A stretch of DNA of 64,000 bases from an uncultured Candidatus Rokubacteria bacterium (GTDB lineage: Bacteria > Methylomirabilota > Methylomirabilia > Rokubacteriales > DASRDR01): contig CAWGVS010000010.1 in assembly GCA_963826115.1 (NCBI GenBank), positions 541,444-605,443 on the forward strand, in the 5' to 3' direction. A program made the position numbers and the translations under genes. Positions 47,801 through 63,111 of this stretch are shown one piece after another (the first letter of the stretch is position 1; the number at the start of each line of letters is the position of its first letter). The notes beneath the pieces were generated by a model. It was not told the origin of the DNA and searched no databases. It saw only the letters and a list, made by a program, of their open reading frames with translations.

Positions 47801-50702
47801 CGACCAGCAGCCCGGCCACAGCGGCCAGGATCGGCGCCCCGCGCATTCGCCGATAGGCGCCGGCCAGCGTGAGAGACAGTCCCGTCTTGGCCTGCGCGGC
47901 CGTCATCCATTCAAGCAGCCGTCGATGGGTCCCGTACACGCGGATCAGAGTTCGGCTGATCGCGTCGCTCATGAGCCAGGCCTGATGCGCCATGAAGGTG
48001 ATCCAGAGCGCGATCTGGGAGGCGGCCAGCGCGAAGCTCCGTCCGACGGCGCGGATGTGGGTCCGCTTGGAGATGCCTGCCCGCCTCGGGATCACCTCGG
48101 CGAACGGCGGCAGGAGCGCGGGCACCGCAATCGTGACGAGGACGAACGCCGTCCACACGAGCGGCAGGCGGTCTTGAAGCATCCAGCCGGCGGCAAGCGT
48201 CAGCCAGGCGGCCGGCGCCGACAGGGTGCGGCGGAGATTGTCCACCATCTTCCACTGATCGATGGGCGGGATGGAGCTTCGGTGCGCCCCGATACCGGCG
48301 GCCCCGCGGAGGATCCAGGGCAGCAGTTGCCAGTCTCCGCGCGCCCACCGATGCTGCCGCGCCGCAGCGACCTCGTAGTCCGTCGGGAACTCCTCGAACA
48401 GCTCGATGTCCGTGACCAGTCCCGTCCGCGCGAAGATCCCCTCGAACAGGTCGTGGCTGAGGAGGGCATTCTCGGGGACGCGGCCCTCCAAGGCCCCGGC
48501 AAATGCCTCGACGTCATAGATGCCCTTACCGGTGTACGAGCCCCCGCCGAAGAGATCCTGGTAGACGTCCGAGGTCGCCGCCGCATAGGGATCGATGCCC
48601 GCCGGCCCCGCAGTGAGCCGCTGGAAGAGGGACGTGTCGCGATCGGCGGGCATCGTGGGCGTGACGCGCGGCTGAAGCACCGCATAGCCGTCGACGACCC
48701 GGGCCTCGCGCGCCTCGAAGACAGGCCGGTTGAGCGGATGGGCCATCGTCCCGACGAGGCGGATGGCGGCACCCCGGGGCAGGCGCGTGTCCGCGTCGAG
48801 GGTGATCACGTACCGGACCGCCGGCGGCACGTCCAGGTGCGACCCCACGAACGTCGTGTCGCCGCGCCCCAGGAGCAGCTGGTTGAGCTCCTGCAGCTTG
48901 CCGCGCTTGCGCTCCCATCCCATCCACTGGGCTTCGCTGCCATTCCAGACCCGTCGGCGGTGGAGCAGGAGGAACCGCGCCCCAGCGTCGGGAACAGGAC
49001 CATGGCGCCGATTGAGCCGAGCGATCCGCTCGCTGGCGGCCTCGAGGAGTCGACCATCCGCCGGCATGGTTTCCGCCGGTGCGTCGATCCAGTCGGACAG
49101 GAGCGCGAAGTGAATGGCGCCCTCCAGATTGGCCAGATAGTGGAGCTCCAGGCGATTGACCTGCTCCTCGATCTCGTCGTCGCTCACCAGTAAGGTCGGC
49201 ATCACCACGAGGGTTCGCAGCGTCGTCGGGATGCCCGCGGCGAGCTCGAGGCGCGGCAGCACCCGGGGGCCGAGCAGCTCCGTCACGACGCGATTGATAA
49301 GCGCGACGGCAAGATCGGACGCCGGGATCAAGGCGGCGAGCCCGAGAAGGACGAGCACGACCGGGCTCACGCCCGCGGCATGGGTGGTGACGAGAGGAAC
49401 CATCACGAGCAATCCCGCGATGACGCCGATGGTGCCCAGGTAGCCTGGCGTGGCTCCGCCGACGTAGGCTCGCAGCAGCCACTGCGTGAGGGGGACCCGG
49501 TAGCCGATCTCCCGTTCGAAGCCGCGCCGCCCCTTCGAGATCAGATAGTAGCCAGGATCCTCGACTCGGGATTCCGCCGGGGCGCCCGCCGGCTCCCGCT
49601 CCGACGCGGCGCGGTTCACTCGAGCGATCGCCTCCTGGGCGACGGCGAGGTCCGTCCGCCGGGACCCTCGCGCGAGGTCCTCGATCGCGTGACGGTACCG
49701 GTCGCGCGTCTTGAAGTCCATCGCGCCGAAGTTGCTCCCGGCGCGCAGCGCGGCATCCACCAGGCTGACGCTCTCGAAGAACTCCGCCCAGTCGAACGTC
49801 GACATCGCCCGCATGCTGGTAATCACGTTGCGGACCGTGACGTTCATCGCCGCCTGGCGCTGGTGCTCCTGCTGCACGAGCTCCTCGGGCGACGTCCCCA
49901 GCCCGGACAGCTGTTCGCTGAGCCATGCCAGCGCCGGTGTCGACTTCGGATCCTGTTCCCGTAGGCGTTGGACGAGCTGCACGGTGAAGGCCATCGGCAT
50001 GGCAGCGGCCTCGAGCCGCCGAAAGGCCAGACGGCGCGCCGGCTTCCCGCCGAGTCCCAGCAGCTCGTTCGCGAGCGCGTCCGCATCACGGCGCGCCGCG
50101 CGCTCGTTGACGATCTGCTCAGCCAGGCGCCGGAGGTTCTCGAGGAGTACCAGACGCAGGGCGATCGGGACGGCCCACAGCTCACCGATGGTCAGCACCT
50201 GGACCCGCTGGAATCGCTGGACGAAGCGCTGGAGGGTCTCGCCCTCGAAGCGGCTGTCGGTGTGGGCGACGAAGGGCCAGGCCAGGCCCAGTACCCGAGG
50301 GTAGCCCTCGAGGGGCCCCTCCGCGAGCTTCGGCAGCCGGCGGTAGAAGCCTGGTGGCAGGTCCTCCCGGACCTCCCGAAGGACGTCCTCCACGATGTGG
50401 AAGTTGTCGACGAACCATTCCGCGGCCGGGGTGATCGCGCCTTCCTCTCGGATCACGGTGGCGAGTTCGCGATAGCATTGGAGTAGCACGCGGCCGCTGT
50501 CTCGCACGTGTGGTGAGAGGGGGCGTCCGCTCCGACCCTCGGTGAGGACACGCTGGTCGGCCACGCTTTCCGCGTACTGCTCGAGTCGCTCGGCGCTAAA
50601 GAGCTCTGCCCGGATGGCCTCTTGAGAGTGAGGCAGAGATCCCGACGAGAACACACCCGATCCCAAGTCTCGGAACAGCCTGCTGGATCTCAGCCCCGGC
50701 AC
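41895..50702 (-). CDS. ndvB: Cyclic beta-1,2-glucan synthase (GT84 plus GH94-like domains); start approximate
   Basis: IRAELFS, WERKRGKL, LSHDLFEG, WARGDWQL, SWSGSMFEYLMP, YQAGGAYGFRDQLQD, GDWNDG, RENGGQYTH. Confidence 0.95.
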   Translation of the reverse strand: MPGLRSSRLFRDLGSGVFSSGSLPHSQEAIRAELFSAERLEQYAESVADQRVLTEGRSGRPLSPHVRDSGRVLLQCYRELATVIREEGAITPAAEWFVDNFHIVEDVLREVREDLPPGFYRRLPKLAEGPLEGYPRVLGLAWPFVAHTDSRFEGETLQRFVQRFQRVQVLTIGELWAVPIALRLVLLENLRRLAEQIVNERAARRDADALANELLGLGGKPARRLAFRRLEAAAMPMAFTVQLVQRLREQDPKSTPALAWLSEQLSGLGTSPEELVQQEHQRQAAMNVTVRNVITSMRAMSTFDWAEFFESVSLVDAALRAGSNFGAMDFKTRDRYRHAIEDLARGSRRTDLAVAQEAIARVNRAASEREPAGAPAESRVEDPGYYLISKGRRGFEREIGYRVPLTQWLLRAYVGGATPGYLGTIGVIAGLLVMVPLVTTHAAGVSPVVLVLLGLAALIPASDLAVALINRVVTELLGPRVLPRLELAAGIPTTLRTLVVMPTLLVSDDEIEEQVNRLELHYLANLEGAIHFALLSDWIDAPAETMPADGRLLEAASERIARLNRRHGPVPDAGARFLLLHRRRVWNGSEAQWMGWERKRGKLQELNQLLLGRGDTTFVGSHLDVPPAVRYVITLDADTRLPRGAAIRLVGTMAHPLNRPVFEAREARVVDGYAVLQPRVTPTMPADRDTSLFQRLTAGPAGIDPYAAATSDVYQDLFGGGSYTGKGIYDVEAFAGALEGRVPENALLSHDLFEGIFARTGLVTDIELFEEFPTDYEVAAARQHRWARGDWQLLPWILRGAAGIGAHRSSIPPIDQWKMVDNLRRTLSAPAAWLTLAAGWMLQDRLPLVWTAFVLVTIAVPALLPPFAEVIPRRAGISKRTHIRAVGRSFALAASQIALWITFMAHQAWLMSDAISRTLIRVYGTHRRLLEWMTAAQAKTGLSLTLAGAYRRMRGAPILAAVAGLLVVLVRPASWPIAAPFLLVWALSPLIARWVSRPPSADPAQRLSASDARLLRSTARRTWRFFEAFVGPGDTFLPPDNFQEDPAPVLAHRTSPTNIGLYLGAIVAARDLGWLGMLEAVERVEATIATMGRLERFRGHFYNWYETTDLRPLEPRYVSTVDSGNLASQLLVLGNACRGALARPLLDQEAFAGMEDAVLLVREAASALVDDRRTQTVRLGHLDHACEALALMLRDRPQTAADWLVRVGQLAGQADALVDIARTLTAERGDSEGSDVLVWAQAARATIASHGRDLDRLMPWASRLEALVADLPQAPREAVIASSALCSSFPTLAELADVCESSVSELTAMLDGDPRAGSDRLERVERVHELIGQLEGAAVAARALVERLSAVARVTKQLFDAMEFGFLFHSARKIFSIGYRVTEGGLDPSAYDLLASEARLASFIAIANGAAPTSHWFHLSRPMTPVGLGAALVSWSGSMFEYLMPALVMQAPPGSLLQRTYRLVVQRQIGYGAEHGIPWGISESAYNVRDLDLTYQYSNFGVPGLGLERGLSEDLVVAPYATALAAMVDPGAAARNFTRLIAVGGRGSYGFYEALDYTPSRLPTGATVAIVRAYMAHHQGMTVIALANVLRDGVMRARFHGEPIIQATELLLQERVPRDVAVARPRAEEVQAPAHVREFVEPSFRQFASPHDPTPRTHLLSNGRYTVMLTTAGSGYSRCAELAVTRWREDVTRDHWGTYLFLRDVQSGAVWSAGYQPTGVEPDDYRVTFAEDRAELYRRDGAITTTLEVLVSPEDDAELRRVSVMNLGGQTREIELTSYAELVLAQPAADAAHQAFSNLFVQTEWVADLGALLATRRARAATDPPIWAAHTVVVEGQSGGAQYETDRGRFLGRGRGIRTPMSVIDGRPLSNTTGSVLDPIFSLRRRVRLAPGESARLVFSTLVAPSREAAVALADKYRDPATFERTVTLAWTRAQVQLNHLGVGVDEARLFQDLAGRILYADATLRPTAVVLRQNESGPTALWAHGISGDLPIVLVRIDEPEDRGIVRQLLRAHEYWRLKGLGVDLVILNERGHSYTEELQASLEALVRTSQSASRRERHETHGKVFILRKDLLKAPERDALQTAARAILLSRHGTLAEQLSRATAAPSPAAPPRRRPARAPSPADAPPARPEFEFFNGLGGFVDDGREYVTVLGEGQWTPAPWVNVVANPAFGFQVSESGAGYTWSRNSRENQLTAWSNDPVSDPPGETIYVRDEETGDLWGPTPLPIREDASPYVARHGQGYSRFEHTSHGIFLSLLQFVPVNDPVKISRLTIENRSGRSRRLSVTAYAEWVLGVSRSASAPVIVTEIDSDTGALFARNPWNIDFGDHVAFADLGGRQTAWTGDRTEVLGRNGTLDHPALLERGSRPSGRVGAGLDPCAALQTVIEVAPGGREEIVFFLGEAATAAEARELLTRYRAADLDLTLQAVKTRWDDIVGAIQVKTPDRSVDIMLNRWLLYQTLACRVWARSAFYQAGGAYGFRDQLQDVMALTVANREVAREHLLRAAGRQFVEGDVQHWWHPPSGRGVRTRISDDAIWLPYAVTQYLEATGDASVLDEVIPFLEGPVLATGQHESYFEPTVSAEHGTVFEHCARALDRSLAIGAHGLPLIGTGDWNDGLNRVGPEGHGESVWLGWFLHTTLWEFARWADARGERGRAGRWRDHVDLLKTSLEEQAWDGDWYRRAFFDDGTPLGSAVNEECRIDSIAQSWGVLSGAADPKRAARAMAAVEEYLVRRGQELVLLFTPPFDRAPVDPGYIKGYPPGVRENGGQYTHAAIWSVMAFAALGDGDKANELFSILNPINRASTRAGVHRYKVEPYVAAADVYAESPHVGRGGWTWYTGSAGWMYRAGMEWLLGFRLRGAVLHLDPCIPRAWRRFAITFRYHGSRYEITIENPRGVSRGIAQIEVDGRALMPGTTSVPLTADGAAHRVRAVLG

Positions 50703-51010
50703 GTGGGTGACCCTTCGGACCCGGCGCGGATGGGTGGGCACCGAGCCGAAGGCCTTGTGAGCCCGTGGGTAACTCTGGGCGACTCGTCGGTCGCCTCGGT
50801 CCATGGCCCCTCGGTGCCCAGTGCCCAACTCAAGAGGGGGGTGCTCTCGCTCAAGCGTCGATTCCCTTGGATCAGAAGTAGCCACATTGTCGCCGCCGCA
50901 ACAGCGAGCAACACGAAGATCACACGCAACGGGGCCCGCGTCTGTGACCATGACGTCCCCGCCACGCCCGCCGTGGCGGGGCCCGCGGGCTCTTTCGTAT
51001 CGTTCACCAC
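50690..51010 (-). CDS. Hypothetical single-TM protein
   Basis: Hydrophobic LRVIFVLLAVAAATMWLLLI; packed between neighbours on the same strand. Confidence 0.4.
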   Translation of the reverse strand: MVNDTKEPAGPATAGVAGTSWSQTRAPLRVIFVLLAVAAATMWLLLIQGNRRLSESTPLLSWALGTEGPWTEATDESPRVTHGLTRPSARCPPIRAGSEGSPTCRG

Positions 51011-51041
51011 CGAGCTCGAAGCAAGCCGGCCCGCGCGGCCG

Positions 51042-51232
51042 CTACTTCTTCAGTGTGTCGACGGCGTGGTCGATCCGCTCGCCCGCCGTCTCGAGTGGTC
51101 CCTTCCCGCTCAACTTGTCCAGAGCCTTGTCGAGCTTCTCACCCACCTCTCGGCCGGCCCTTTCTCGCACCCCACCAAGACGCCACTCCCCAACAACCCG
51201 AGGACGACGATGCCGACGACGAACTGGTTCAT
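51042..51232 (-). pseudogene. Small lipoprotein (CEKGPAE...GEKLDKA repeat) with one-base deletion near 51147
   Basis: Lipobox LVGC; shifted frame continues VGEKLDKALDKLSGKGPLETAGERIDHAVDTLKK-stop. Confidence 0.75.
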
Positions 51233-51346
51233 CACGCTTCTCCTGTCCATCACAACCGCAAGCGTGTGGTCAGCCACCGGCCTTCCCGATGTGACTCGTT
51301 CGAGACCATGCCGCACCGGCGGCGCCTTGTCGGGACCGTCGGCCGC

Positions 51347-51808
51347 TCAACGCGGGCCGCATTGGAACGTCACGGTCTTGGTTCCATCGGAATTGGTCGC
51401 GATGCTCGATGTCATCGGCTGCGAGCTGTACTTCGGGCAGGAGGCGCTCGCGGTTTGTGATGCCTGCACCAGCTCCTGATCCGTCCGGTAGCTGTAGCTC
51501 TGGCTGGGAGGGGTCGGCGCGGGCGCGGGAAGTGTCGTCCGCACGCATTCAAAGAGCACGGCTTTGCTCCCGTCGGCATTGGTCGTGATGCTGGAGGTGC
51601 GCGGGATCGTCTGATACGGACTGCAGAACGTCGTCGCGTTCTGGTTCGCCTGAAGCAGTTCTTGGTCAGTCCGATAGTTGTAGGTCACGCTCGGGTTGCT
51701 CGACTGCACGGGCTGTTGCGACGTGGGAAAGCTTGTACAGGAGGCAAGGGCCCCGGCCGCCAATAGAGCGACTGCCGACACGTTCACCCATCGAGCGATC
51801 ATGGCCAT
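51347..51808 (-). CDS. Lipoprotein with two internal Cys-containing repeats
   Basis: Lipobox LASC; YRTDQEL.QA.Q.A...C..Y...SSI.TN.DG.K.V.F.C occurs twice. Confidence 0.82.
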   Translation of the reverse strand: MAMIARWVNVSAVALLAAGALASCTSFPTSQQPVQSSNPSVTYNYRTDQELLQANQNATTFCSPYQTIPRTSSITTNADGSKAVLFECVRTTLPAPAPTPPSQSYSYRTDQELVQASQTASASCPKYSSQPMTSSIATNSDGTKTVTFQCGPR

Positions 51809-51923
51809 CTGAAACCCTCTTTCACGTTCGCGGTGGTAGACACCCATCTGTAGTGACCCGATGTGTTTCCTGCGTCCTTTCCCGGGACTTGGGAACTACT
51901 AGGCGCGTCCCGGATTTCAAGAC

Positions 51924-51960
51924 TGTATTAGTATAATAGTACAGTAGTACGAGATGTCAA
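51924..51960 (-). promoter_or_regulatory. sigma70 promoter overlapped by YtrA-type operator copy 3
   Basis: Minus strand TTGACA-N16-TATTAT; TGTATTA-GTATAA-TAGTACA-GTA at 51924-51946. Confidence 0.75.
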
Positions 51961-52135
51961 GAGGCAAGGAGTCGCAGGGTGGCATGAGCTGTAAATGCTC
52001 GGGCCGCTGCTCGTCGCGGGCATGTTCGACGCCGGAGAAATCCTGTCGATTCTCTTCGGCGTGGAGACCGTCACCAAGGCCCCGGTGAAGCGGACGCTGA
52101 AGATGGAGTTCAGTGTCCCCACGGTGCGGCCGGGC

Positions 52136-52173
52136 CTCCCTAGTAAAGGTAGCCAGTCCCGTCGGGGACACCA
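52136..52173 (+). repeat. att-like site copy 1 ending in a tRNA-Glu-type 3' end
   Basis: CTCCCTAGTAAAGGTAGCCAGT-CCCGTCGGGGACACCA; 35/38 identical to 55013-55050. Confidence 0.8.
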
Positions 52174-52296
52174 GCTGCTATGTATGTTTCACCCAGCGGC
52201 GCGCCGGCATCACCCTTCGCCGAGAAGCGATAGTAACGGGCCCGGCCCGGGCCGTAGGGCGTCCAGGTGATGTGCTGTACGAAAGCGCACAACACG
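52140..52296 (-). pseudogene. Putative C-terminal remnant of a large serine recombinase running into the att core
   Basis: VLCAFVQHITWTPYGPGRARYYRFSAKGDAGAPLGETYIAAGVPDGTGYLY-stop; family resemblance by eye only. Confidence 0.5.
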
Positions 52297-52746
52297 TCCG
52301 GCGAGGGCCAGGGCGGAGACCATTGCGACTCGCGTCATTATTCGACTCTCGGCCGCCTCAGGGGGTGTAAGCGTCCCTGGCGACCGATGTCCAACGCACG
52401 AAGGCGCACACTGGGAAGACGCCGGCACGGGATCACCCGGCGCGATCGGTAGCGGCGACGCCCGCTCCGGTGGCGAACGAGAACGGTCCATCTGCCGGGC
52501 AAGCGAGGCCTTGTGTTGGTGGCTCAGCCAACGCGGGGTCCACTTGCCGGCGGAGCCAGGATGGAGAGCGGGAAGATACCAGCGCCGCGGCAGATGTCGT
52601 GAAGCCGCGATTCGATTTTAGGTTCGACGAGGCCGTTTCCATGCAGCGTCGCCGACGGGTCCGAGCGCGGGCGCGGAAAGGGTAGCGGATTTTCAATGCG
52701 GTAGCGTGGGGCAAGAGGCCCATCGATGCCTATGTTTTCGACGCTC

Positions 52747-53832
52747 TCAGAAGTTGAAGTGGGCCCCGATGCCGAGATACTCGACGGCCTCCTTGAAGAA
52801 CTGTCCCTCGAACGAGCGCCCTCTGTAGTACTCCACGAGAATCTGTAGATTCCGGCTGAGCACGCTCACGTTCTCGAACTGCAGACCGAAGCGCAGCGAG
52901 AGGTCCGCGTCCCAATCGTTCTCTTCGTGGGACTGGACATCGATCCCCGCGATGGGCCGCAGCCGGCCCTGCCACAGGGTCCATGGGCTCCTGAACTCGG
53001 CGCCGACCTGAACCAGACCACGACCGAGGTTCGAAGGGTCCACGTCGACCAGGTATCCGCCGCCGGCATAGGCGCGAAAGCCCAGAGGCAGGTCGTAGGA
53101 GAACTTGGCGTCCAGGCCCTCATAGCTCAGGTTGACGCGGTTCGGGCGGCTCGCTCGCAGGAGCAGCTCGTCGCCGAGATGCGAGCTCTGGTGGAAGAAC
53201 CTGCCGAGCGCCGAGACGTCGCCGAAGCGGTATCCCACGAAGCCCGCGACGAGGAAGTCGGTGTTGATGAGGTCGAACGACTGCGAGTCGAGATCGAAGA
53301 TCGAGAAGACGCCGCCCTGCACGCCCGCCTCCCACTGACCCCACTCGCCTTTCTCGCCGATATTGCTCCGGTACAGCGGGATGGTCTCGCCGAAGCTGAC
53401 GGCGACCGCCTGCGTCGAACCGGGGGTGCTGGGGTAATACCGGTAGGAGCCCGCGAAGTGGGGCCAGCGCGGGTCGGCGATGAGCGCCCTGAAGAGGTGC
53501 CCGGATGGCAGGAATCCCACCGTGGCCCCTTCCACCGCCGGCGCCGGACCCGTCGGAGCCTGTGGCCCCGCCTCCAGCATCTCGACGCGAGTGACCCCTT
53601 TGACCGCCGAGAGGGTGGTGACGATCTTCGATCGATCGGCGCGCGGAGAATCGCCTGCGTCGATGGTCACGATACCGTCCTTCACCGTCAAGGACCGTGG
53701 GTTGATGTTGAACTGCCGCTCCAGGATGGCGGCGATATAGCCGGCGGTGTACGCGTCGTCAGCGCCGAGGGCAGCGGGCGGAGCGAGGCACAGCAAGGCC
53801 AGTGCGAGCAGGCAAGCATGGCGGTATCTCAT
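52747..53832 (-). CDS. DUF1207-like outer-membrane protein with N-terminal BON-like segment
   Basis: Signal peptide; LIADPRWPHF, DLINTDF, HQSSHLGDE, C-terminal Phe. Confidence 0.82.
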   Translation of the reverse strand: MRYRHACLLALALLCLAPPAALGADDAYTAGYIAAILERQFNINPRSLTVKDGIVTIDAGDSPRADRSKIVTTLSAVKGVTRVEMLEAGPQAPTGPAPAVEGATVGFLPSGHLFRALIADPRWPHFAGSYRYYPSTPGSTQAVAVSFGETIPLYRSNIGEKGEWGQWEAGVQGGVFSIFDLDSQSFDLINTDFLVAGFVGYRFGDVSALGRFFHQSSHLGDELLLRASRPNRVNLSYEGLDAKFSYDLPLGFRAYAGGGYLVDVDPSNLGRGLVQVGAEFRSPWTLWQGRLRPIAGIDVQSHEENDWDADLSLRFGLQFENVSVLSRNLQILVEYYRGRSFEGQFFKEAVEYLGIGAHFNF

Positions 53833-54585
53833 GTGGTTTTCCCCGGCTAGGGTTGCCGACGTCCGTGAGGTCCACCAGTGTGACTCCTTCAGCAAACCGA
53901 TGCTCACCCGCGTCCCCGAGGGCTCCGCGAGCTCCTTAGTGAAGACTTACCAATGGCATGAAGCTTACTAATGGCGCGCTGCAGGTCACAAGTTTCTTCG
54001 GACAGCTGCTCGGGAGGGTCGTGAAGATCGGCCGATCCAGTCGCAATAGTGTATCTCGTGAGGATCTTTGCTCGTGAGAGTGTTTCACGGGGACGATGCG
54101 TAGTACGAGAGAACCCCCGGACAAGATGTCGACAAGCAGCCGACACGCTGCAAGGAGGTCGTGACCGGAGTTTCGTTGAACCTTGTGGGAGGCCGATTGT
54201 TCTCGCGCGGCCTGAGCACGCGCGATTGAGCTGGGCAGCCGTGAGCCAGGTTTCCGAGCGGCCCTGGCAGGAGTACGAAGCGTTCGCGACCCGCGATCTG
54301 AGTGAGTTCGTCGGCACCGACCGTGGAAGGGGAGCGGCTCCGCGCGGGGCAGGCCGTCAGGGAATTCCGGCCGTTCGGGTCGCGAACCCCGGCCCCGGGA
54401 AGTCTATCCAGCCTCTCGCTACGCGGCCAGGAGCCCCGAACTCCCGAGCAGAAGGGGGCCGAGCTATCGGGTCGGTCTGGTAGGGAACCCGTAGACTCCG
54501 CTCCACGCCACAGGATGACCCCTGACGCGATGAAGCGTGGTGCCGCGCCCCCGTCTAACCATCAGAACAGCCAAGGAGGCGCATC

Positions 54586-54771
54586 ATGTCGCACGCCAAA
54601 CTCCTCGTCCACCTGATGCTCGCGACCGTCTTGCTCGCAGGTTGCATCGTCGTGCCATTCCCCGTGCCAGTCGGTGGTGGTTACGGCCAGGGTGGCGGCC
54701 ACGGGGGCGGCTACGGCTATGGTTCCGGTCCATACGGACACTACCCGCCCGGACCCTACCGCCGATGGTAG
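54586..54771 (+). CDS. Small Gly/Tyr/Pro-rich lipoprotein
   Basis: RBS AAGGAGG; lipobox LAGC-IVVP. Confidence 0.8.
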   Translation: MSHAKLLVHLMLATVLLAGCIVVPFPVPVGGGYGQGGGHGGGYGYGSGPYGHYPPGPYRRW

Positions 54772-55012
54772 ACCGCCGCCCGTCCCCGGTGTGGTGCGGC
54801 GCGAATTCCGGGGGCGCCCGGCTCGTCTAACAACGGCGGAAGGCTCAGCCGGCCACTTGGCTCGCCCTCGTGGTTTCTGACGAGGGCGCTGTACCATCGC
54901 ATCCTGATCACCGTTACGCCGCAAGCGGTCACGATGAGAGCGTCGGCTACCGCTTCTCGTTATCCCGTCGGGGATTCCTGGGGCTGCTCTAAGCGGCTAG
55001 GACCCCCCTGAA

Positions 55013-55050
55013 CTCCCTAGTAAAGGTGGCCAAGCCCGTCGGGGACACCA
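55013..55050 (+). repeat. att-like site copy 2 ending in a tRNA-Glu-type 3' end
   Basis: CTCCCTAGTAAAGGTGGCCAAG-CCCGTCGGGGACACCA. Confidence 0.8.
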
Positions 55051-55163
55051 CCCGTTTTGAGACGGACGCGACTACCGTCCCTTCCGCAAGCCGGAGCACA
55101 TGACTACGCTCCTCGACAGCTCACGTAAGGCAGAGCTCGACATTGACGCTCGCGACACTTGTC

Positions 55164-55976
55164 TCAGAAGGCGAGGAAGTCTCTTAACGCGTCGAGCACA
55201 GCCTCGGGGTTGTCCTCGTGGAGGGTGTGTACCGCGCGAGGAATCTCGACCAGCCGCGCCCGCGGCAGCGTCTTCACCATCCGCTCGGCGACGTCGCGGT
55301 CGAGCACCATGCTATCCGTGCCGCGGAGCACGAGGGTCTCCGTCCTGATCGAGGGCAGGAGGCCCCACCAGTCGAAATCGCCGGGGCGCCGCTCCTTGAT
55401 GGAGGGATGCCATTTCCAGACGAGCCGGCCGTCGGGGCGGGCCTTGAGACTCGACGAGACGACCCAGCGGTAATAGTGGATACCGGGGTGCGGATTGCCG
55501 CGGAACAGATGCTGCGCCGCTTGCTCGATGCTCTCCCACGTCTCGGGCTCCGGCGGCCCCGACGACGGCTGCCCCGCCCTCTTGCTGATCTCCGGACCGA
55601 TGTCCACAACGACGAGCTTCCGGACCGCGTCCGGACGCTTGGCGGCGAAGTACATTCCGTTGCGCCCGCCCATGGACAGCCCGACGAGCACGAGCGGGGT
55701 CAGGCCCAGGCGGTCCACCACGCCCGTAATGTCGCCGAACGCGGCGACCGGACCGTACACGTCCGCCGGATCGCTATCGCCGTGGCCCCGCTGGTCGAGC
55801 GCCCAGACGTGGAAGTGCGGCTGAAGCGCGATCGCGAGCGTGTCCCACGCGTGGGCGTGCCCCGTAAAGCCGTGGAGCAGCAGCAGATGCGAGCGGCCCT
55901 CGCCGCCCCAGTCGAGGACGCGCAGCCTGAGACCGTTGACGGTGACGTCGCGCTCGTTCGGCCGCAAGAGGTTCAT
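55164..55976 (-). CDS. Alpha/beta hydrolase
   Basis: LLHGFTG, DQRGHGDS, GLSMGG, terminal HTLHEDNP. Confidence 0.92.
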   Translation of the reverse strand: MNLLRPNERDVTVNGLRLRVLDWGGEGRSHLLLLHGFTGHAHAWDTLAIALQPHFHVWALDQRGHGDSDPADVYGPVAAFGDITGVVDRLGLTPLVLVGLSMGGRNGMYFAAKRPDAVRKLVVVDIGPEISKRAGQPSSGPPEPETWESIEQAAQHLFRGNPHPGIHYYRWVVSSSLKARPDGRLVWKWHPSIKERRPGDFDWWGLLPSIRTETLVLRGTDSMVLDRDVAERMVKTLPRARLVEIPRAVHTLHEDNPEAVLDALRDFLAF

Positions 55977-56115
55977 GAGGTCACGATACTCTCAGTGCAG
56001 GTACGGGCGTGTCCCTCGTGCTCGGGCTCGGTAGGGTAGTGAGCCGAATCGTGACAACCGGCTCCCAGGTGCCGGAGGCGAGCCGGGAGCCGGTCGGCCG
56101 GGAAAGGGCGGGCGT

Positions 56116-56193
56116 CTAACTCCAGCGCGAGTAACCCCAGCCCCCACCACCAAGCAGGACCAGCACCAGTAGGATGATCACCCAAGTTTCCAT
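56116..56193 (-). CDS. 25-aa membrane microprotein (DUF3309-like; not in ORF track)
   Basis: METWVIILLVLVLLGGGGWGYSRWS; RBS AAGGAGGT; downstream hairpin. Confidence 0.8.
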   Translation of the reverse strand: METWVIILLVLVLLGGGGWGYSRWS

Positions 56194-56277
56194 GTGCTCC
56201 ACCTCCTTTTCCAGCCACCTGAGGTCTCGAGGCCGATGCGTCGCGGCCGAGACCGCCTCGTTTGATTCTCTGCTCGT

Positions 56278-56323
56278 ACTCTAGGACCGGGTCAGGGTGG
56301 CGCCAATTGGACCTTCGTCCAAT
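56278..56323 (-). promoter_or_regulatory. TTGGAC-N4-GTCCAA box (56306-56323) plus -10 TAGAGT (56278-56283)
   Basis: Perfect 7-4-7 palindrome, 22-bp spacer. Confidence 0.8.
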
Positions 56324-56808
56324 ATCGAGGCCGGTGCCCTGGCCGGGCTCGACGGGCACCGGCGATGCGCACAGATGTCCTTGAGCGTATCCATGACCTC
56401 CGTGCCCCGCAGAGACTGTCCTCCGCCCTTGGCGTCGGCGGCGAGGATGAGGTCGTTGATCGAGACGATGCCCTGAAGCTTCCCGTCCGAGGTGACCACG
56501 GGCAAGCGCCGCACCTGCGCCTCGCGCATGACTTGCAGGGCTTCCCGGACGTCGTCGTCGGCCCGGACGGCGTAGAGCGGTCCACTGACGACCTCGCTCA
56601 CGCGGATCTCGGCGGCGGGCCGAGGCTGGGAGATTGTGGCCATGCAGACGTCGCGGTCCGTGATCATGCCGTGCACCATTCCCGACACGGGGTCCACCAC
56701 GGGAATCGCGCCGCAGTCATGTCGCCACATGAGCGTTCCCACCGCGGCGAGAGTGCTGGACGGGTTGCAGGTCTGGGCGTTGACGGTCATTACATCGTGG
56801 ATCTTCAT
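56281..56808 (-). CDS. CBS-domain pair protein
   Basis: MWRHDCGAIPVV, GMITDRDV, QVRRLPVV, GIVSINDL. Confidence 0.9.
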   Translation of the reverse strand: MKIHDVMTVNAQTCNPSSTLAAVGTLMWRHDCGAIPVVDPVSGMVHGMITDRDVCMATISQPRPAAEIRVSEVVSGPLYAVRADDDVREALQVMREAQVRRLPVVTSDGKLQGIVSINDLILAADAKGGGQSLRGTEVMDTLKDICAHRRCPSSPARAPASILDEGPIGATLTRS

Positions 56809-56819
56809 GTTGGCTGTCC

Positions 56820-57143
56820 TTGTGAGCTGAGGGGCCGCTCCATCCGAACTCGGGCTCGACGGGCATCGTGTCGGCTCGTTGTGACCGAGCGTCGGCGACT
56901 AACGACGGTCGTGTTCTGACCATCGATTCGAGTCCGGCGGCTACCACCGGCGCCTCGTCTTCTGCCAAGGCGGACGCTCTCGCGGCGTGCTCGAGTTGAT
57001 CCACGCGCAGTGCCGTACCCGGGAGAGGTCTCCCCAATGCCGAGAGAGTGCGACGAAGCCGAGGGAGGCGCACGCGCCGGACGGCGCCGAGGAACCGGAA
57101 CACGACGATCGAGACTCCGAGAATCCAGGAGCGTGGTGTCCAT
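56820..57143 (-). pseudogene. Multiply frameshifted small membrane protein gene
   Basis: RBS GGGAG and MDTTLL, then ILGVSIVVF in another frame; lies just downstream of a box promoter. Confidence 0.35.
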
Positions 57144-57167
57144 CCGGTCGCTGTTCTCCCGTCGCTC

Positions 57168-57241
57168 ACTCTAGGCGCATGTACCCCGTTCGCATATGAG
57201 ACCTAGGTCCAATAGGCGCTGGCGTGCGAGGCGCATACCGT
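57168..57241. promoter_or_regulatory. Bidirectional promoter: box 57196-57213 with -10 TAGAGT (minus, 57168-57173) and TACCGT (plus, 57236-57241)
   Basis: ATGAGAC-CTAG-GTCCAAT with 22-bp spacers on both sides. Confidence 0.78.
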
Positions 57242-57331
57242 CGATACGGGACGAGTGAATAGCGGGGTCCTCGGGACTTCCCAGGATTGACGTCGCGGCC
57301 GTGGCGACGGACCCCCTGAAGGGAGGCCGGC

Positions 57332-57483
57332 GTGTTTCTGACTCTGTGTACCGTGTTGGTGGTGGCCTGGCTACTCGGGTGGACCGTGTTTCACGTCGCG
57401 GGTGGCCTGATTCACCTGCTCCTGATCGTGGCGGCCACTCGATGATCGCCCATCTTGTGCGCGGCCGCGGCGCCGGGGCCTAA
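57332..57483 (+). pseudogene. DUF5670 / lmo0937-like small membrane protein, one-base deletion near 57437
   Basis: VLVVAWLLGWTVFHVAGGLIHLLLIVA, then SMIAHLVRGRG in shifted frame; RBS GGGAGG. Confidence 0.78.
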
Positions 57484-57618
57484 GGCGAACACCGCGTCCA
57501 CCGTCACGGAATCGCTCACACCGCCGGCGGGCGATGACCGCCCGCTGGCTGAGTGACACAACGAATCGTCGAGGTCCGGCATGGCCGCAGGGGCCGTACG
57601 GGGCGATGAGGAGGACCG

Positions 57619-58419
57619 ATGGGATCGATGTTGCGGAGCGTGAGAGATCTTGGCGGCTTCACGATCGGCGCGACCGATGGTGACGTCGGGCAGGTGGCGA
57701 CGTGCTATTTCGACGACACGAGCTTCACGGTTCGGCATCTGGTGGTTGACACCGGAGGCTGGCTGTCTGGACGAAAGGTCCTCATCTCGCCGCGGGCCCT
57801 CCGGGACATCGACTGGGACGCCAAGCGGATCAACGCGGCCTTGACCAAGGTCCAGGTGATGCACAGCCCGGACATCGACACGGACCGGCCGGTCTCGCGT
57901 CAGCAGGAGATCGAGTACGACCGCTACTACGGGTACCCCAGTTACTGGACAGGACCGTACCTCTGGGGCGGCGATCCCGCTCCCGTCCTTTCGGACCGCA
58001 CGCCCGCCTCCTCCTTCGAGCAGGAGCAGCACTGGGAGTGGGGGTCTCAGGAGGCCGGAGATCCGCACCTCCGAAGCGTGGCCGTCGTGACCGGTTACCA
58101 CATCTCGGCCACAGATGGCGATATCGGGCACGTCGAGGACTTCCTGGTGGACGAGGCGACGTGGGCGATTCGCTACATGGTCGTTGACACGCGCAATTGG
58201 TGGTCTGGGAAGAAGGTGCTGGTGTCGCCGCGGTGGATCGCCGGCGTGGACTGGAACGCCTCCGCGGTGGAGGTCGAGATGAGTCGCGAGCAGATCAAGA
58301 ACAGCCCGGAATACGATCCATCGGCGCCCCTGCAGCGCGACTACGAGTCGCGTTTGCACGAGCACTATGGTCGCCCCGGGTACTGGTCCGGTTCGGATAC
58401 GGAGCGTGCCCGGCGGTAG
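57619..58419 (+). CDS. Tandem PRC-barrel domain protein
   Basis: Two ATDGD.G.V...FDD/VDE...VVDT..W..G.KVL.SP repeats. Confidence 0.9.
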   Translation: MGSMLRSVRDLGGFTIGATDGDVGQVATCYFDDTSFTVRHLVVDTGGWLSGRKVLISPRALRDIDWDAKRINAALTKVQVMHSPDIDTDRPVSRQQEIEYDRYYGYPSYWTGPYLWGGDPAPVLSDRTPASSFEQEQHWEWGSQEAGDPHLRSVAVVTGYHISATDGDIGHVEDFLVDEATWAIRYMVVDTRNWWSGKKVLVSPRWIAGVDWNASAVEVEMSREQIKNSPEYDPSAPLQRDYESRLHEHYGRPGYWSGSDTERARR

Positions 58420-58516
58420 GGGGCACACGGTCGTCAGGTGGGCCGATCCAACGTCACGGCCGCGAAGCGGCGACCGCGACAACGGAAACGAAGGCGATGT
58501 GACAAGGAGAGCGGAC

Positions 58517-58807
58517 ATGCGAACCAGTGAGGCTTTCATTTTAGGAACGATGGCGGGCGCCGCCATCGCGTGGTTCTGGGGAAGAGGGATTGCGGACTAC
58601 GTGGGGGAGCAGACGCGCGGCGTGCGCGTCGGGGCCGCCGACGGCATGCGGGCGGCGGACGAGACAGCGGGACGGGTTCTGGACCTCGGGGGGGACTCCC
58701 TGCGGCGCGCGGAGGAGTTCCTGCAAGACACCAAGGAGCATGTCAGTGACGCCCTCCGTGCGGGACAGGAGGCGATTCGTCCAGCGCCGAGAACCAGAGA
58801 CGCGTGA
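58517..58807 (+). CDS. YtxH-like membrane-anchored helical protein
   Basis: RBS AAGGAG; FILGTMAGAAIAWFW followed by amphipathic helix. Confidence 0.7.
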   Translation: MRTSEAFILGTMAGAAIAWFWGRGIADYVGEQTRGVRVGAADGMRAADETAGRVLDLGGDSLRRAEEFLQDTKEHVSDALRAGQEAIRPAPRTRDA

Positions 58808-58873
58808 CGAGGGCCGGGACCTGGTCCCGGTCGGATGACGCCCGGGTACGGGTAGACCGGAAGGAAGCGCTCG

Positions 58874-59674
58874 ATGCTATCGAAGCTGCTCGTTCTCGCC
58901 CTGATCGTGACGGCGGCCATCGTGCCATCGGTGGCCGCGGATCCGATCGCCGTTCGGTTGGCGGAGGCCGGCGCGCGGGGGTTCCTGATCCTGCGTGATG
59001 CGGGCACGGGCAAGGTCGTGGCGAAGGGCGAGCTCATCCAGGTCATCCGAGGCGATGGGATCGAGAGTCGGCTGATATTTCGCTTTGCCGACGAGTCGCT
59101 GAGCGACGAGACGGTCGTGTTCTCGCAGCGCTCGGTGTTCCGGCTGCTGAGCTACCGGCTGATTCAGCGCGGGCCGGCGTTTCCCGAATCGCTCGAGGTG
59201 TCCATGACGCGGGATCCGCCCGTGTACTCGGCGCGTACGCGGTCCCGCGAGGGCAAGGAGGCCAGCAGCCGAGGAGCGCTGGACGTGCCGGCGGACCTCG
59301 CCAACGGAATGCTGGGACTCGTCCTCCGGAATCTGCCGACCGGTCGTTCCGAAAGCGTGCAGATCGTCGCCTTCACCCCGGAGCCGCGCTTCCTGGACGT
59401 CCTCCTGAGCCCGGCGACGGCGGTTCCCGTTCTCGCGGGAGGTGTTCAACGCTCGGCCGGCCTGTTCGTGCTGAAGCCGAAGCTCCGAGGCATTGCTCGG
59501 CTCGTCGCGCCGCTGATCGGCAAGGAGCCGCCGACGCTGCGGTACTGGATCCTCGGGGGCGAGGTGCCGGCCTTCCTCCGATTCGAGGGGTCCATGTTCC
59601 TGAACGGCCCCGTGTGGCGTGTCGACCTCACGGGCGCCGAGTGGCCTGGGCAGACCGTCACCCAAGGGCCGTGA
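58874..59674 (+). CDS. Exported hypothetical protein
   Basis: Signal peptide; biased codons; DLANG, VAFTPEPR, PAFLRFEG. Confidence 0.8.
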   Translation: MLSKLLVLALIVTAAIVPSVAADPIAVRLAEAGARGFLILRDAGTGKVVAKGELIQVIRGDGIESRLIFRFADESLSDETVVFSQRSVFRLLSYRLIQRGPAFPESLEVSMTRDPPVYSARTRSREGKEASSRGALDVPADLANGMLGLVLRNLPTGRSESVQIVAFTPEPRFLDVLLSPATAVPVLAGGVQRSAGLFVLKPKLRGIARLVAPLIGKEPPTLRYWILGGEVPAFLRFEGSMFLNGPVWRVDLTGAEWPGQTVTQGP

Positions 59675-59963
59675 GGCACGGCCGGGCACCTGGACCGGCG
59701 GGTGCCCACACCGGTCCCGCTGCCGTGGCCGGGTCGACGTCCGAAGTTCGGACGCATCTCAGCGACGCCCGGAGGTTTCTGTGGCGAGCCAATGAAGAGG
59801 GCGGGGTCGGACTGTCTGCTCTCGGCGCGACCGGGGGTCGTCTCTCACGCGAGCGGGGCGGTGTCCCGGTGAGCCCCCGCTGCGGGTCGACGGTGCGATG
59901 TCCCAGCGAGTTATTGATTCGAGCTCTACCAGCGCGGATGACACGGATGAAAGGGAGTGCGTG

Positions 59964-60551
59964 ATGAGCGCGAGGAACGCGACCAAGACGCCAACCCGAC
60001 CATTCCTGAGCGATATCAAGGAGATCCGACGCCGAGCGCGGGCGCACATGGACCAGGGGGCCGTGACCGACGGGTATCGGGCAGACCGCGAGACGGTCGT
60101 GCGCCTCCTCAACGAAGCGCTGGCGACCGAGATCGTCTGCGTGCTGCGGTACCGACGCCACCACTACATGGCGAACGGCATCCATGCAACCGCGGTCGCC
60201 GCGGAGTTCATGAAGCACTCCCAGGAGGAACAGGGCCACGCCGACCAGATCGCCGAGCGCATCGTGCAGCTCGGCGGCGCGCCCGACTTCGACCCGGCCG
60301 GTCTCAGCACGCGCAGCCACTCGGAATACGTCGCGGCGGACGAGCTTGCGGAGATGATCCGCGAGAATCTCGTCGCGGAGCGCGTCGCCATCGAGTCCTA
60401 CGGTGAGATCATCCGATACCTCGGGGAAGGCGACCCGACGAGCCGTCGCTTGATGGAGGAGATCCTGGCCGTCGAGGAGGAGCACGCCGACGACATGAAG
60501 ACGCTCCTGGAGGCGCTGGGACCACCGAGCAAGAGTGAGAAGACCCGGTAA
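59964..60551 (+). CDS. Ferritin-like / bacterioferritin protein
   Basis: LNEALATE, EEQGHAD, LVAERVAIESY, EEEHAD ferroxidase motifs. Confidence 0.92.
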   Translation: MSARNATKTPTRPFLSDIKEIRRRARAHMDQGAVTDGYRADRETVVRLLNEALATEIVCVLRYRRHHYMANGIHATAVAAEFMKHSQEEQGHADQIAERIVQLGGAPDFDPAGLSTRSHSEYVAADELAEMIRENLVAERVAIESYGEIIRYLGEGDPTSRRLMEEILAVEEEHADDMKTLLEALGPPSKSEKTR

Positions 60552-60598
60552 CGGCGCGCGCAGCCCGCAGGGCGAACGAGCGCCGTCCACGACTGGGG

Positions 60599-60644
60599 AT
60601 TGGACGAAGGTCCAATAGCTGCCGGTCCATCCGGTTGCTACCGT
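60599..60644 (+). promoter_or_regulatory. TTGGAC-N4-GTCCAA box (60599-60616) plus -10 TACCGT (60639-60644)
   Basis: ATTGGACGAAGGTCCAAT, the exact reverse complement of 56306-56323; 22-bp spacer. Confidence 0.8.
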
Positions 60645-60786
60645 GAGCTTCAGAGGTCGGGGGTCACCGAGGCATCCCGGCGAGATGGTCTCGGTCGCTC
60701 GATACCGAGATACGAGGCGGCGCGGCGGCGAGGGTGCCGGCGCGCACACCGATATCACCACACGGTCCACACACAGGGAGAAAAGC

Positions 60787-61833
60787 ATGAATCGAACATC
60801 GTGGCTCAAGTCTGGCGTGCTCGCGGTGGCGCTGGGCGCGGCGCTGGCCGCGCCGGTCGGGGCGGCCGCACCGGACGCCTGGATCACCACAAAAGCGAAG
60901 CTGGCCCTCCTGACCACGGAGGGCGTCAGCGGGACGGCGATCCACGTGGACACCGTTCTCGGCCGAGTCACCCTGCACGGCAAGGTGCCCTCCGCCGCGG
61001 AGAAGGCGCAGGCCGAGAGCGTCACGCAGAAGATCGACGGCGTGCAGAGCGTGCGCAACCTGCTCCAGGTGGTGGCCCCGCAGCACGTGCAGGCGATGCA
61101 GGTGACCGACGACGCCCTCAAGGCGCGGATCGAGACGGCGCTGCGGGCCGATCCGTCCCTCCGGGACAGCGGGATCTCCGTCCAATCGGTGAACAAGGGG
61201 GTCGTGCTGCTGACGGGCACGGCGAAGAGCCTGAGCGCTCACTTGCGCGCGGTCGAGATGGTGGCCGCGACGCCGGGCGTGCAGCGGGTGGCCAGTGAGG
61301 TCCAGAGCCCGGATACGCTGGCGGATGCCGAGATCTGGCGTGCCGCCACCCCGAAGCCCGCCACGAGCAAGGAGTACGGAGTCGGGGACGCGGCCAGCGA
61401 CACGTGGATCACCTCGGCGACCAAGATGCGCTTGCTGGCGGACTCGAGAACGCCGGCGCTCGACATCAACGTGGACACCCGGGCGGGGATCGTGACGCTC
61501 TTCGGCATCGTGCCGACGCAGGACGCGAAGGCCGCGGCTGCGGAGGACGCCCGCAAGGTGAGCGGCGTCACGCGCGTCGTGAACGAGCTGCAGGTCGTGG
61601 CGACCTCGAAGCAGGCGGCAGTGAAGGTGCGCGACGAAGAAATGCAGGGCGCCGTGAAGAAGGCCTTTGACACCCAGGACTTCAAGGACGTCACGGTGAA
61701 GGTGAAGAACGGCGTCGTGCGGCTGACCGGTACCGTTCCCACGGGAACGCGGCGGCTGGAAGCGGCGGTGCTCGCGCGCTCGATCCAGGGCGTGCGCGCC
61801 GTCGAGGACGATCTGCGCGTCGTGGCAGCCTAG
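60787..61833 (+). CDS. Secreted protein with four BON domains (OsmY-like)
   Basis: Signal peptide; four D..I...K...V...G.V.L.G...GV..V...L units. Confidence 0.92.
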   Translation: MNRTSWLKSGVLAVALGAALAAPVGAAAPDAWITTKAKLALLTTEGVSGTAIHVDTVLGRVTLHGKVPSAAEKAQAESVTQKIDGVQSVRNLLQVVAPQHVQAMQVTDDALKARIETALRADPSLRDSGISVQSVNKGVVLLTGTAKSLSAHLRAVEMVAATPGVQRVASEVQSPDTLADAEIWRAATPKPATSKEYGVGDAASDTWITSATKMRLLADSRTPALDINVDTRAGIVTLFGIVPTQDAKAAAAEDARKVSGVTRVVNELQVVATSKQAAVKVRDEEMQGAVKKAFDTQDFKDVTVKVKNGVVRLTGTVPTGTRRLEAAVLARSIQGVRAVEDDLRVVAA

Positions 61834-61921
61834 GCGAGACCCTTCGACACGACGCTGCCACACCACACGCCCCGCGACGATCGCAGGCCGCGGTCGTCGC
61901 GGGGCGACGAGGAGGACGGCA

Positions 61922-62113
61922 ATGGGCGGAAAGCTCGACCAAGCAAGAGGTCGCATCAAGGAGGCGGCGGGGGTGTTGACCGGTGACGACCGTCTCAAGA
62001 GAGCCGGGAAGGCGGATCAGGTGGCGGGGAAGGTGAAGGGAACGGTGGAGCGGGTGGTGGATACCGTCAAGGACGCTCTGACCGGCAACAGGCCCAACCG
62101 CCCGGCCCGGTGA
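61922..62113 (+). CDS. CsbD family general stress protein
   Basis: GRIKEAAGVLTGDDRLKRAGKADQVAGKVK; RBS GAGGAGG. Confidence 0.9.
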   Translation: MGGKLDQARGRIKEAAGVLTGDDRLKRAGKADQVAGKVKGTVERVVDTVKDALTGNRPNRPAR

Positions 62114-62564
62114 TCGGCTGCGCCGGCCCGTGACGGGGAGACGACGGGGGCGGGGCCGAATCGTATGACGCTCGTGGGGTGCTCGCCCTCCCGGGCTCGG
62201 TGGGATGGACGACGCGGCAAGCGAGACTCCGCCGCTCGCCGAAGTCGGTCACCCCAGACCTTGCCAGCACGCTAGGCGGCTCGGTGGCTGGGCGACGGCT
62301 CCCGGCCGTGGCAAGGGCCGCCTCCGCCGCCTTTTCGTAATCCTGGCGGTAAACGTCCCCGGCAGAGTCGGCCTTCGGGCTGGCCGAGCTCGGAGGCGAG
62401 CCCGCCCTCGCCCGCGTCTCGCGGCCCCTCCCGATGACGCCCGGCCCATCGGTGGCATCGAGGTGATCGAGAGGCACGCGGCCGGGTCGTCGCACGCCCC
62501 CCTCGAGCACCGGGGGTCTCCATGGCCACCCTGCCGATCCCGCCACTGGCCTCGGCGGCTTCGA

Positions 62565-62610
62565 GTTGGACCAAAGTCCAATATTCCAGCCGGACCGTGT
62601 CGACTAGAGT
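62565..62610 (+). promoter_or_regulatory. TTGGAC-N4-GTCCAA box (62565-62582) plus -10 TAGAGT (62605-62610)
   Basis: GTTGGACCAAAGTCCAAT; 22-bp spacer. Confidence 0.8.
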
Positions 62611-62725
62611 CAGGCGCATGGAGCCCGGATACGTGGTTTCCGCGTGCCGGCCGGCCGAGCGGTGTGGAATCAGCGGCGCGGTGGCCGCCAGGGATGACCT
62701 CAACGGCATCGACAGGAGATTCAAG

Positions 62726-63040
62726 ATGAACGGAATGTCGAAGCGCCTGATGCTCCTCTTTCTTGCGCTGTCCTTCACCTTCGTTACAGGCTGTGCGTCC
62801 ACTACCAAACAGGAAGGGACCGGGGAGTACGTCGACGACTCGGTGGTCACGACCAAAGTGAAGAGCGCCATCCTGAACGACCCCGAGCTGAAGGTGCTAC
62901 AGATCAACGTCGAGACGTTCAAGGGCGTGGTGCAGCTGTCTGGATTCGTCGACTCCAAGGCGATGATGGCCCGCGCGGTCGAGGTGACTCGCGGCGTGGC
63001 CGGTGTGAAGGACGTGAAGGACGACATGCGCGTGCGGTGA
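62726..63040 (+). CDS. Single BON-domain lipoprotein
   Basis: Lipobox VTGC; TGEYVDDSVVTTKVK, INVETFKGVVQLSGFV. Confidence 0.92.
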   Translation: MNGMSKRLMLLFLALSFTFVTGCASTTKQEGTGEYVDDSVVTTKVKSAILNDPELKVLQINVETFKGVVQLSGFVDSKAMMARAVEVTRGVAGVKDVKDDMRVR

Positions 63041-63111
63041 CCGTGCTTCGCCGCTCGACGTGGCGAAGTGACTCGTGCCGCGAGCCGTCGGAGGTCATGA
63101 GGAGGTCGACC

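Follow-up and report, generated by a model that had tools for sequence, protein, structure and literature searches.

The window is the whole 64-kb stretch of DNA analyzed here. On its minus strand, positions 54989–55048 translate to VSPTGLATFTREFRGVLAA followed by a TAG stop codon, and the slightly larger interval 54980–55060 gives ..VVSPTGLATFTREFRGVLAA* with the stop at 54989–54991. Overlapping this reading frame is one copy of a 47-nt direct repeat that is found at positions 52136–52182 (copy a) and 55013–55059 (copy b) with 85% identity. A 25-nt core pattern has two matches at three or fewer mismatches and none in 100 shuffles, and core copies a and b are the only two in the 6.24-Mb genome. 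The features of the locus are as follows.

52136–52156, minus strand: second tail, cut short to the codons LATFTRE; the match with copy b ends at 52136.
52140–52304, minus strand: 3′-terminal remnant of a large serine recombinase (LSR) gene, 49 codons, 5′ part deleted; it reads the core as GVPDG and ends ..AGVPDGTGYLY*, with the stop codon at 52140–52142.
52157–52173, plus strand: att core a, a copy of tRNA-Glu(ttc) positions 62–78, 17 of 17 identical (blastn of the genome's own tRNA-Glu).
54962–54974, plus strand: third, partial core copy of 13 nt (tRNA-Glu positions 61–73), followed by ATTCC in place of ACACCA.
54989–55048, minus strand: orphaned recombinase tail, from its translation and from homologous tails with synonymous codon turnover in 14 distinct copies. 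Its parts are VSPTG at 55034–55048 (inside the tRNA-derived core), LATFTREFRGVLAA at 54992–55033 and the TAG stop codon at 54989–54991.
54992–55120, minus strand: stop-to-stop frame of 43 codons that holds the tail.
55032–55050, plus strand: att core b, a copy of the tRNA-Glu(ttc) 3′ end, positions 60–78, 18 of 19 identical (blastn of the genome's own tRNA-Glu).

The first-pass annotation had read the minus strand in this manner and had pointed out that the three differences between the att copies are synonymous. Translation bears out both points. The differences in the shared tail codons are GGC/GGA, TTG/CTG and GCC/GCT, all three are synonymous in the VSPTG frame, and the chance of this is approximately 0.02. 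The label "att" given at that time is justified by the tRNA-Glu(ttc) matches of 17/17 in copy a and 18/19 in copy b. Since the repeats match the tRNA-Glu 3′ end, they duplicate the end of a tRNA in the way that att sites do. The 43-codon frame is placed by hhalign at the C-terminal columns of the LSR alignment, weakly (probability 4.7%, E-value = 0.0085). Approximately 25 codons upstream of core b (..VSKRVVSPTG) are possibly all that is left of a recombinase 3′ end.

No tRNA gene was detected in the 64-kb window by ARAGORN. The genome's own tRNA-Glu(ttc) is situated on a different contig, which has no recombinase match; recombinase matches in this genome are confined to contigs C5 and C10. Thus the window has direct repeats that copy a tRNA 3′ end, as expected of a tRNA-targeting LSR element, but not an intact tRNA at the element end. 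In a DNA search of 61 related genomes, 11 matched; for the same genus the figure is 5 of 14. The true tRNA end (..GGGTTCGAATCCCGTCGGGGACACCA) aligned at the core position in two loci, and in one of these, L017, it is identified as tRNA-Glu(ttc) by ARAGORN. A search of Rfam with positions 50500–57500 gave no matches at E-values up to 1, and the repeat is thus not explained by a known RNA.

A variant junction is seen at window positions 54962–54974, in L007/L026 and at position 6379 of L021. In this junction the core is joined, on the wrong side, to text resembling the ATTCGAA of a T-loop. The junction peptide is ..GFESPTG.., and at all three sites it looks as though joining at the palindromic CCCGTCGGG centre had taken place in reverse orientation.

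Pfam analysis of ten open reading frames around and between the copies shows no integrase, and the neighbors are a DUF1207 protein and an alpha/beta hydrolase. A 3018 amino acid open reading frame at positions 41895–50951 (minus strand), a chromosomal neighbor of the scars, is of the cyclic beta-1,2-glucan synthase type and displays two GH94 supersandwich domains, one GH94 catalytic domain and one glucoamylase-like domain. The lowest G+C content of the region, 0.55–0.58 compared with approximately 0.67 around it, is at about positions 51850–52000, just left of copy a where the similarity between the copies ends. This stretch may be foreign DNA or a deletion joint. Among open reading frames of at least 100 aa at positions 44000–64000, only one matched any relative's locus, and weakly; tblastx gave uninformative noise. 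There are no flanking genes common to the window locus and the relatives' loci, thus the loci are not orthologous and represent separate insertions.

There is no intact recombinase in the window, only the 49-codon 3′ remnant at copy a. A recombinase with Resolvase, Recombinase and zinc-ribbon domains is absent from the window but present in relatives, e.g. at positions 8493–10160 of L020. The remnant displays 47.5% identity over 40 aa to the recombinase of the related genome G014 (tblastn, E-value = 1e-5) and also matches P0001, up to eight residues before the core. Its BLASTP alignment with P0007 is gapless through GVPDG, with 24 of 49 residues identical (E-value = 2e-12). A frameshift reading of this remnant was rejected, as the gapless alignment shows that the GVPDG frame is native. 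The remnant was left by a sister lineage in which GVPDG is the native reading of the core.

An intact relative of the gene is found in G014. Here a 555 amino acid open reading frame runs antisense into tRNA-Glu and has the terminal sequence ..RVVSPTGFEPVLPD (..VVSPTGFEPVLPD). Pfam shows Resolvase, Recombinase and Zn_ribbon_recom domains and no Phage_integrase domain, thus the open reading frame encodes an LSR and not a tyrosine integrase. The same contig and strand has an exact core repeat at a distance of 22.5 kb, with AT-rich DNA before it and, in the recombinase frame, FAGLWKQEFQGLIRIA and a stop codon after it. This far-end tail is homologous to the window tail (the two have ..EF.G[LV][IL]..A in common) and ends in IA. 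G014 has the sole intact element of the genus in which both ends were located.

The window's own genome (G000) also has an intact LSR homolog, on contig C5, and the end of this gene overlaps tRNA-Arg(cct). A candidate island of 8.6 kb is found at this locus (751828–760505); its far-end repeat is 14 nt with one mismatch, and the tail is ..LVALRRAA-stop. On contig C1 of the same genome, at approximately 76–86 kb (L021), lies a graveyard of cores and 3′ fragments of tRNA-Glu, all in one orientation; the fragments number at least five and the cores several. A recombinase remnant of 147 codons in L021 continues in frame into a tail of a second family, TAPLRLLVPIRVRVRAA; this tail is present twice there and again in G008 (L126, L129).

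With an alignment of 32 homologs as query, 80 loci were obtained from GTDB, in genomes of Rokubacteria, Nitrospira, Vicinamibacterales and other groups. The end of the LSR open reading frame overlaps a tRNA on the opposite strand in 45 of these: tRNA-Glu in 30, tRNA-Ala in 10, tRNA-Ser in three, tRNA-Arg in one and tRNA-Lys in one. Several of the other 35 finish in identical tRNA-antisense text. At the tRNA-Glu loci (from the series L043–L122), the frame is SPTGFEP in 25 of 30, GVPNGI in four and CPQRD in one. Since recombinase lineages differ in their frame at the tRNA-Glu end and all three frames occur, the overlap arose or shifted repeatedly. The core frame is a property of the lineage, with no single true frame.

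These loci bear on several proposals that had been made from the window alone. That the peptide is an orphaned C-terminal recombinase tail is supported, the gene being one that spans its own attP. The exchange of the tail for antisense-tRNA residues upon integration is seen in the integrated relatives, where the tail is replaced by residues such as FEPVLPD (..VVSPTGFEPVLPD in G014). It had also been proposed to compare the frame used by intact recombinases: the tail's own frame is the one found at 25 of the 30 tRNA-Glu loci, and a consistent crossing in the GVPDG frame is not the case. The first-pass annotation was correct that the remnant crosses the core in another frame (..GVPDGTGYLY*), but its notion of one true frame does not hold, given that the frame is lineage-specific by the gapless match to P0007.

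The tail family to which the window sequence belongs comprises 14 distinct copies found by pattern and BLAST. AA is the end of 12 of them and VA of one, and the remaining copy is frameshifted; a fifteenth copy, additional to these, ends in GA. The two terminal Ala codons use GCT, GCC, GCG and GCA, and departures from the consensus are at the third position in ten cases and at the second position in one (P = 1.3e-4). The Arg codons of the tail vary between AGG, CGC, CGG, CGA and CGT. Upstream of the AA end is the conserved part of the tail, F-T-R-E-F-R-G. The codon-periodic substitutions and the turnover of Ala and Arg codons indicate constraint at the level of protein and not conservation of a DNA-binding site. 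Judged by these substitution patterns, the tail is selected as protein.

An intact recombinase joined to the FTREFRGVLAA tail was not found by a protein word-index search, in GTDB, in JGI metagenomes, in G008 or among the best 150 HMMER hits. The word-index search for a tail-bearing recombinase gave four matches, none with the tail. A degenerate pattern (the core plus F-T-R-E-F-R-G, with the last four codons free) gave four stretches in GTDB genomes, all without an intact recombinase upstream, and seven contigs in JGI metagenomes, none with an intact recombinase. In G008, the 11 core-bearing regions contain no intact recombinase joined to a tail of this family. A core search of all genomes at two mismatches was too noisy for use. 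The tails found by the pattern mostly have 2–32 upstream codons; the longest in-frame runs are 47–103 codons and do not read as intact recombinase, the run of 103 codons being in the decayed locus L032. The link between this tail family and the recombinase is provided by short in-frame 3′ remnants, e.g. ..GQPKAGVSPTG in L005, and by the related tail of the intact P0103, ..VSPTGSADMWGASFRGLVRAA. In other tails of the clade the recombinase frame continues through the core into the tail, as at position 9630 of L021 (147 upstream codons), in P0103, P0041, P0079 and others.

The 2.9 kb between copies a and b is too short for a whole element, thus deletions have merged pieces. In a tandem array, each internal junction joins one element's recombinase end to its neighbor's tail, and a mismatch of lineage at copy a is therefore expected. 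The window contains two junctions of a decayed array, and these are fossils only. The element is dead, with no tRNA and no intact recombinase present, and thus nothing switches here and the copy is without present function. The first-pass annotation had suggested a possible integration-controlled degron switch; in the window copy it does not operate. We hold the split-tail architecture and the fossil status of the window copy to be very probable. Among coding-like repeats in the genomes of soil bacteria, one class is the scars of old insertions.

Ala-Ala ends were counted at both the protein and the DNA level. HMMER was run against 1.84 billion representatives and the best 150 hits were taken, of which 90 reach query residue 500, i.e. 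the C-terminal region. Among these 90, there are 49 with tRNA-antisense ends, 16 with AA ends and 25 with other ends, although some of the latter are unrecognized tRNA ends, e.g. of the ..GGGGQGS type seen at tRNA-Ala. Within the best 150 hits, AA thus terminates 16 of 41 full-length homologs that have no tRNA-derived end. The background in the long open reading frames of this genome is 2.0–2.1% for AA and less than 0.1% for LAA. The binomial P for 16 of 41 relative to the genome background is 9e-17, a value that is overstated because the sequences are related and not independent.

For the independent test at the DNA level, 45 integrated loci were taken; 11 with a core repeat in the flank were examined, and 34 of the 45 have no such repeat. 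Two 11-nt far-end repeats (L051, L062) and one 15-nt T-arm match (L043) were set aside before counting. In the eight remaining loci, the far-end tail in the recombinase frame ends in AA in six and in TA in one, and L093 has two candidate repeats with the ends TA and FV. With the addition of G014 (IA) and C5 (AA), there are AA ends in 7 of 10 far-end tails; the other two frames at the same sites show AA in 0 of 20. Seven of these islands (4–11 kb; L093 left out) were checked for a second recombinase and none was found.

The AA-ended tails have unrelated sequences and extend 13–26 codons after the core. The third-last residue in AA tails across the clade is R, I or V more often than L. Where intact free-form genes lack a tRNA within 10 kb, their ends are RRAA, RKAA, RRVA, GRVA and SRVA. 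The AA end is not universal, since G014 ends in IA, two far-end tails end in TA and the second candidate of L093 ends in FV. A strong enrichment of C-terminal Ala-Ala across the clade is statistically supported by these counts.

Two further observations concern the tails. A recurrent tail family of the same genus, HVPGALL.. (approximately 35 residues), follows the same core and is not AA-ended; it is found in L013, at position 838 of L022, and in L124, L125 and L133. One Acidobacteriota contig has two intact free-form recombinase genes (L090 and L100) that are 12.8 kb apart; the first ends in RRAA and the second in RRVA, and neither has a tRNA within 10 kb. They may represent two elements in tandem, or passengers of a larger mobile element.

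It is proposed that these 60 bases represent the final 19 codons of an LSR gene, now detached, from a small integrative element that targeted the 3′ end of tRNA-Glu(UUC), that attP was in the coding end of this gene and that an Ala-Ala tag would be lost upon integration. We consider the full proposal to have about an even chance of being correct. With attP inside the coding end of the recombinase, the form that is free or at a tandem junction has a tail that the element itself encodes. For the window element this form would have ended in ..VSPTG-LATFTREFRGVLAA. The integrated form would have read ..VSPTG-FEPVLPD from the antisense strand of the tRNA, with the tail parked at the far end of the element. 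The Ala-Ala end would represent an ssrA-like tag of the ClpXP type, the free-form recombinase would be short-lived, and integration would remove the tag.

The host's tmRNA tag is ADTQLALAA, which ends in LAA, and an adjacent clpP–clpX pair is present on host contig C12 (zf-C4_ClpX, 78 bits; CLP_protease, 298 bits). Recognition of ssrA-like tags by ClpX is dominated by the last residues and the free carboxylate. The window tail has a C-terminal non-polar tripeptide of the LAA type (..GVLAA-stop), and both ClpX and ClpP are encoded by the host. It is about as likely as not that the Ala-Ala end acts as a degron.

A different function for the tail, possible but on the whole unlikely, is that it is a structural or regulatory piece, i.e. 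a C-terminal beta strand beside the zinc ribbon and coiled coil, such that integration would change activity or directionality and the Ala-Ala residues would be incidental. The AlphaFold2 model of P0103, a free-form homolog with a tail other than that of the window (mean pLDDT 86.3), predicts a low-confidence linker at residues 577–588 followed by a beta strand at residues 593–601 with pLDDT of about 81. The model of P0001, an integrated form, lacks an extra strand; its final 14 residues have no structure and a pLDDT below 50. The predicted strand of P0103 means that the tail may also, or instead, alter the fold and activity of the enzyme. The conserved F-T-R-E-F-R-G part, upstream of the AA end, is in keeping with this, and there is precedent in Mx8, where a change of activity or directionality is reported between IntP and the prophage form (PMC6070905). 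However, a mixed alignment of 44 sequences underlies the predicted strand. An accessible, unstructured C-terminus would be expected of a degron. In the P0103 model residues 593–601 are a strand and not a free peptide, a point against the degron; the last three residues have a pLDDT of 66, below the 81 of the preceding strand, a point in its favor. A structural role leaves the Ala-Ala last residues unexplained: they terminate 39–70% of tails compared with a 2% background, in unrelated sequences of differing lengths. The degron and the structural or activity readings are not mutually exclusive.

Two other explanations deny that the window sequence was constrained, or translated, as ..LAA. Conservation could be at the DNA level only, with the 36 bases left of the core representing the recombinase-binding arm of attP and the LAA frame a by-product. 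The half-sites of an LSR attP are bound beside the core, and the tail codons, at roughly 15–45 nt from it, share part of that region. This is nonetheless a very improbable explanation, as changes in the tail are codon-periodic, Arg codons show two-base swaps between AGG and CGN, four Ala codons are used and 10 of 11 Ala-codon departures are at the third position. In addition the AA-stop is at no fixed distance from the crossover in unrelated tails of 13–26 codons, and the other two frames show AA in 0 of 20. The remaining explanation is that the last active element at this site read the core in the GVPDG frame, so that its protein ended in ..GVPDGLGHLY and this copy was never translated as ..LAA. 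The sole recombinase remnant of the window is natively in that frame, in which the tail DNA gives ..LGHLY* or ..TGYLY*; the codon pair ACT AGG, which provides the TAG stop in that frame, is found only in copies a and b among 15 compared; and the frame is used at 4 of 30 tRNA-Glu loci (the third frame at 1 of 30). Yet the three differences between copies a and b, synonymous in VSPTG, are all non-synonymous in GVPDG, and the GVPDG reading is not kept in the other 12 tails. The lineage mismatch at copy a is in any event expected of a tandem array, with pieces merged by deletions within 2.9 kb. We regard this explanation as improbable, though less so than conservation of DNA alone.

To return to a tail that is lost with its Ala-Ala tag, the process may extend to a widespread LSR clade that targets tRNA gene ends, seen here in Rokubacteria, Nitrospira and Acidobacteria. 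It is tentatively suggested, at somewhat less than even probability, that in this clade the state of joining is written into the enzyme. The free form would have the extra strand and the Ala-Ala tag and be short-lived, and the integrated form would lose both, thus providing a built-in sensor of integration by which recombinase activity would be limited or redirected without a separate regulator. Large serine integrases are the main tools for insertion of large DNA into genomes, and their activity is hard to limit after expression. An enzyme whose C-terminus is altered by integration would act as a compact switch that limits itself. What is removed in this way may be a degradation tag, a structural strand or the two together.

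The domain arrangement of these recombinases, Resolvase, Recombinase and zinc ribbon with coiled coil, is that of SPbeta SprA/YokA, TP901-1, TnpX and the "Integrase" of PDB 9iu2. The sequences are, however, only distantly related to characterized LSRs: the best PDB match has an E-value of 1.6e-10 and the best deposited phage has less than 32% identity. The overlap of the LSR end with a tRNA in 45 of 80 loci contradicts a statement in the 2014 Islander paper that serine integrases are not known to target tRNA genes (PMC4383910). A full-text literature search gave neither a serine integrase that spans attP at a tRNA nor an integration-removed tag on a serine integrase within the text covered.

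The closest parallels are among tyrosine recombinases. In Mx8, the attP site is within the integrase gene intP, and the gene, recombinant after integration, acquires a new 3′ end and encodes an integrase whose properties are altered (PMC6070905). The Mx8 and SSV integrases are described as extending across attP (PMC4383910). The elements described here are similar in that attP is inside the integrase coding sequence and a new 3′ end is acquired on integration. Unlike Mx8, which has a tyrosine recombinase, the enzyme here is an LSR and thus the elements are not of the Mx8 type; moreover the Mx8 passages describe no degradation tag.

In phages of the BPs type, attP is inside the repressor gene, where integration removes a C-terminal proteolysis tag, and Int also has a tag at its C-terminus and responds to proteases such as ClpXP (PMC3694055). 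The first-pass annotation had drawn this analogy. It stands with respect to an attP inside a coding sequence and a C-terminal tail that is lost on integration. It fails with respect to the gene and the enzyme: in BPs the repressor is crossed and the tyrosine Int keeps its own tag, whereas here it is the recombinase that is crossed, the enzyme is an LSR and there is no repressor, and the elements are thus not of the BPs type. The function of the BPs tag was shown by experiment, whereas the function of the tag here is deduced. With the ssrA (tmRNA) tag the tail shares a C-terminal L-A-A, as in the host tag; however, the ssrA tag is added by trans-translation, whereas the tail is genome-encoded at the end of the recombinase gene.
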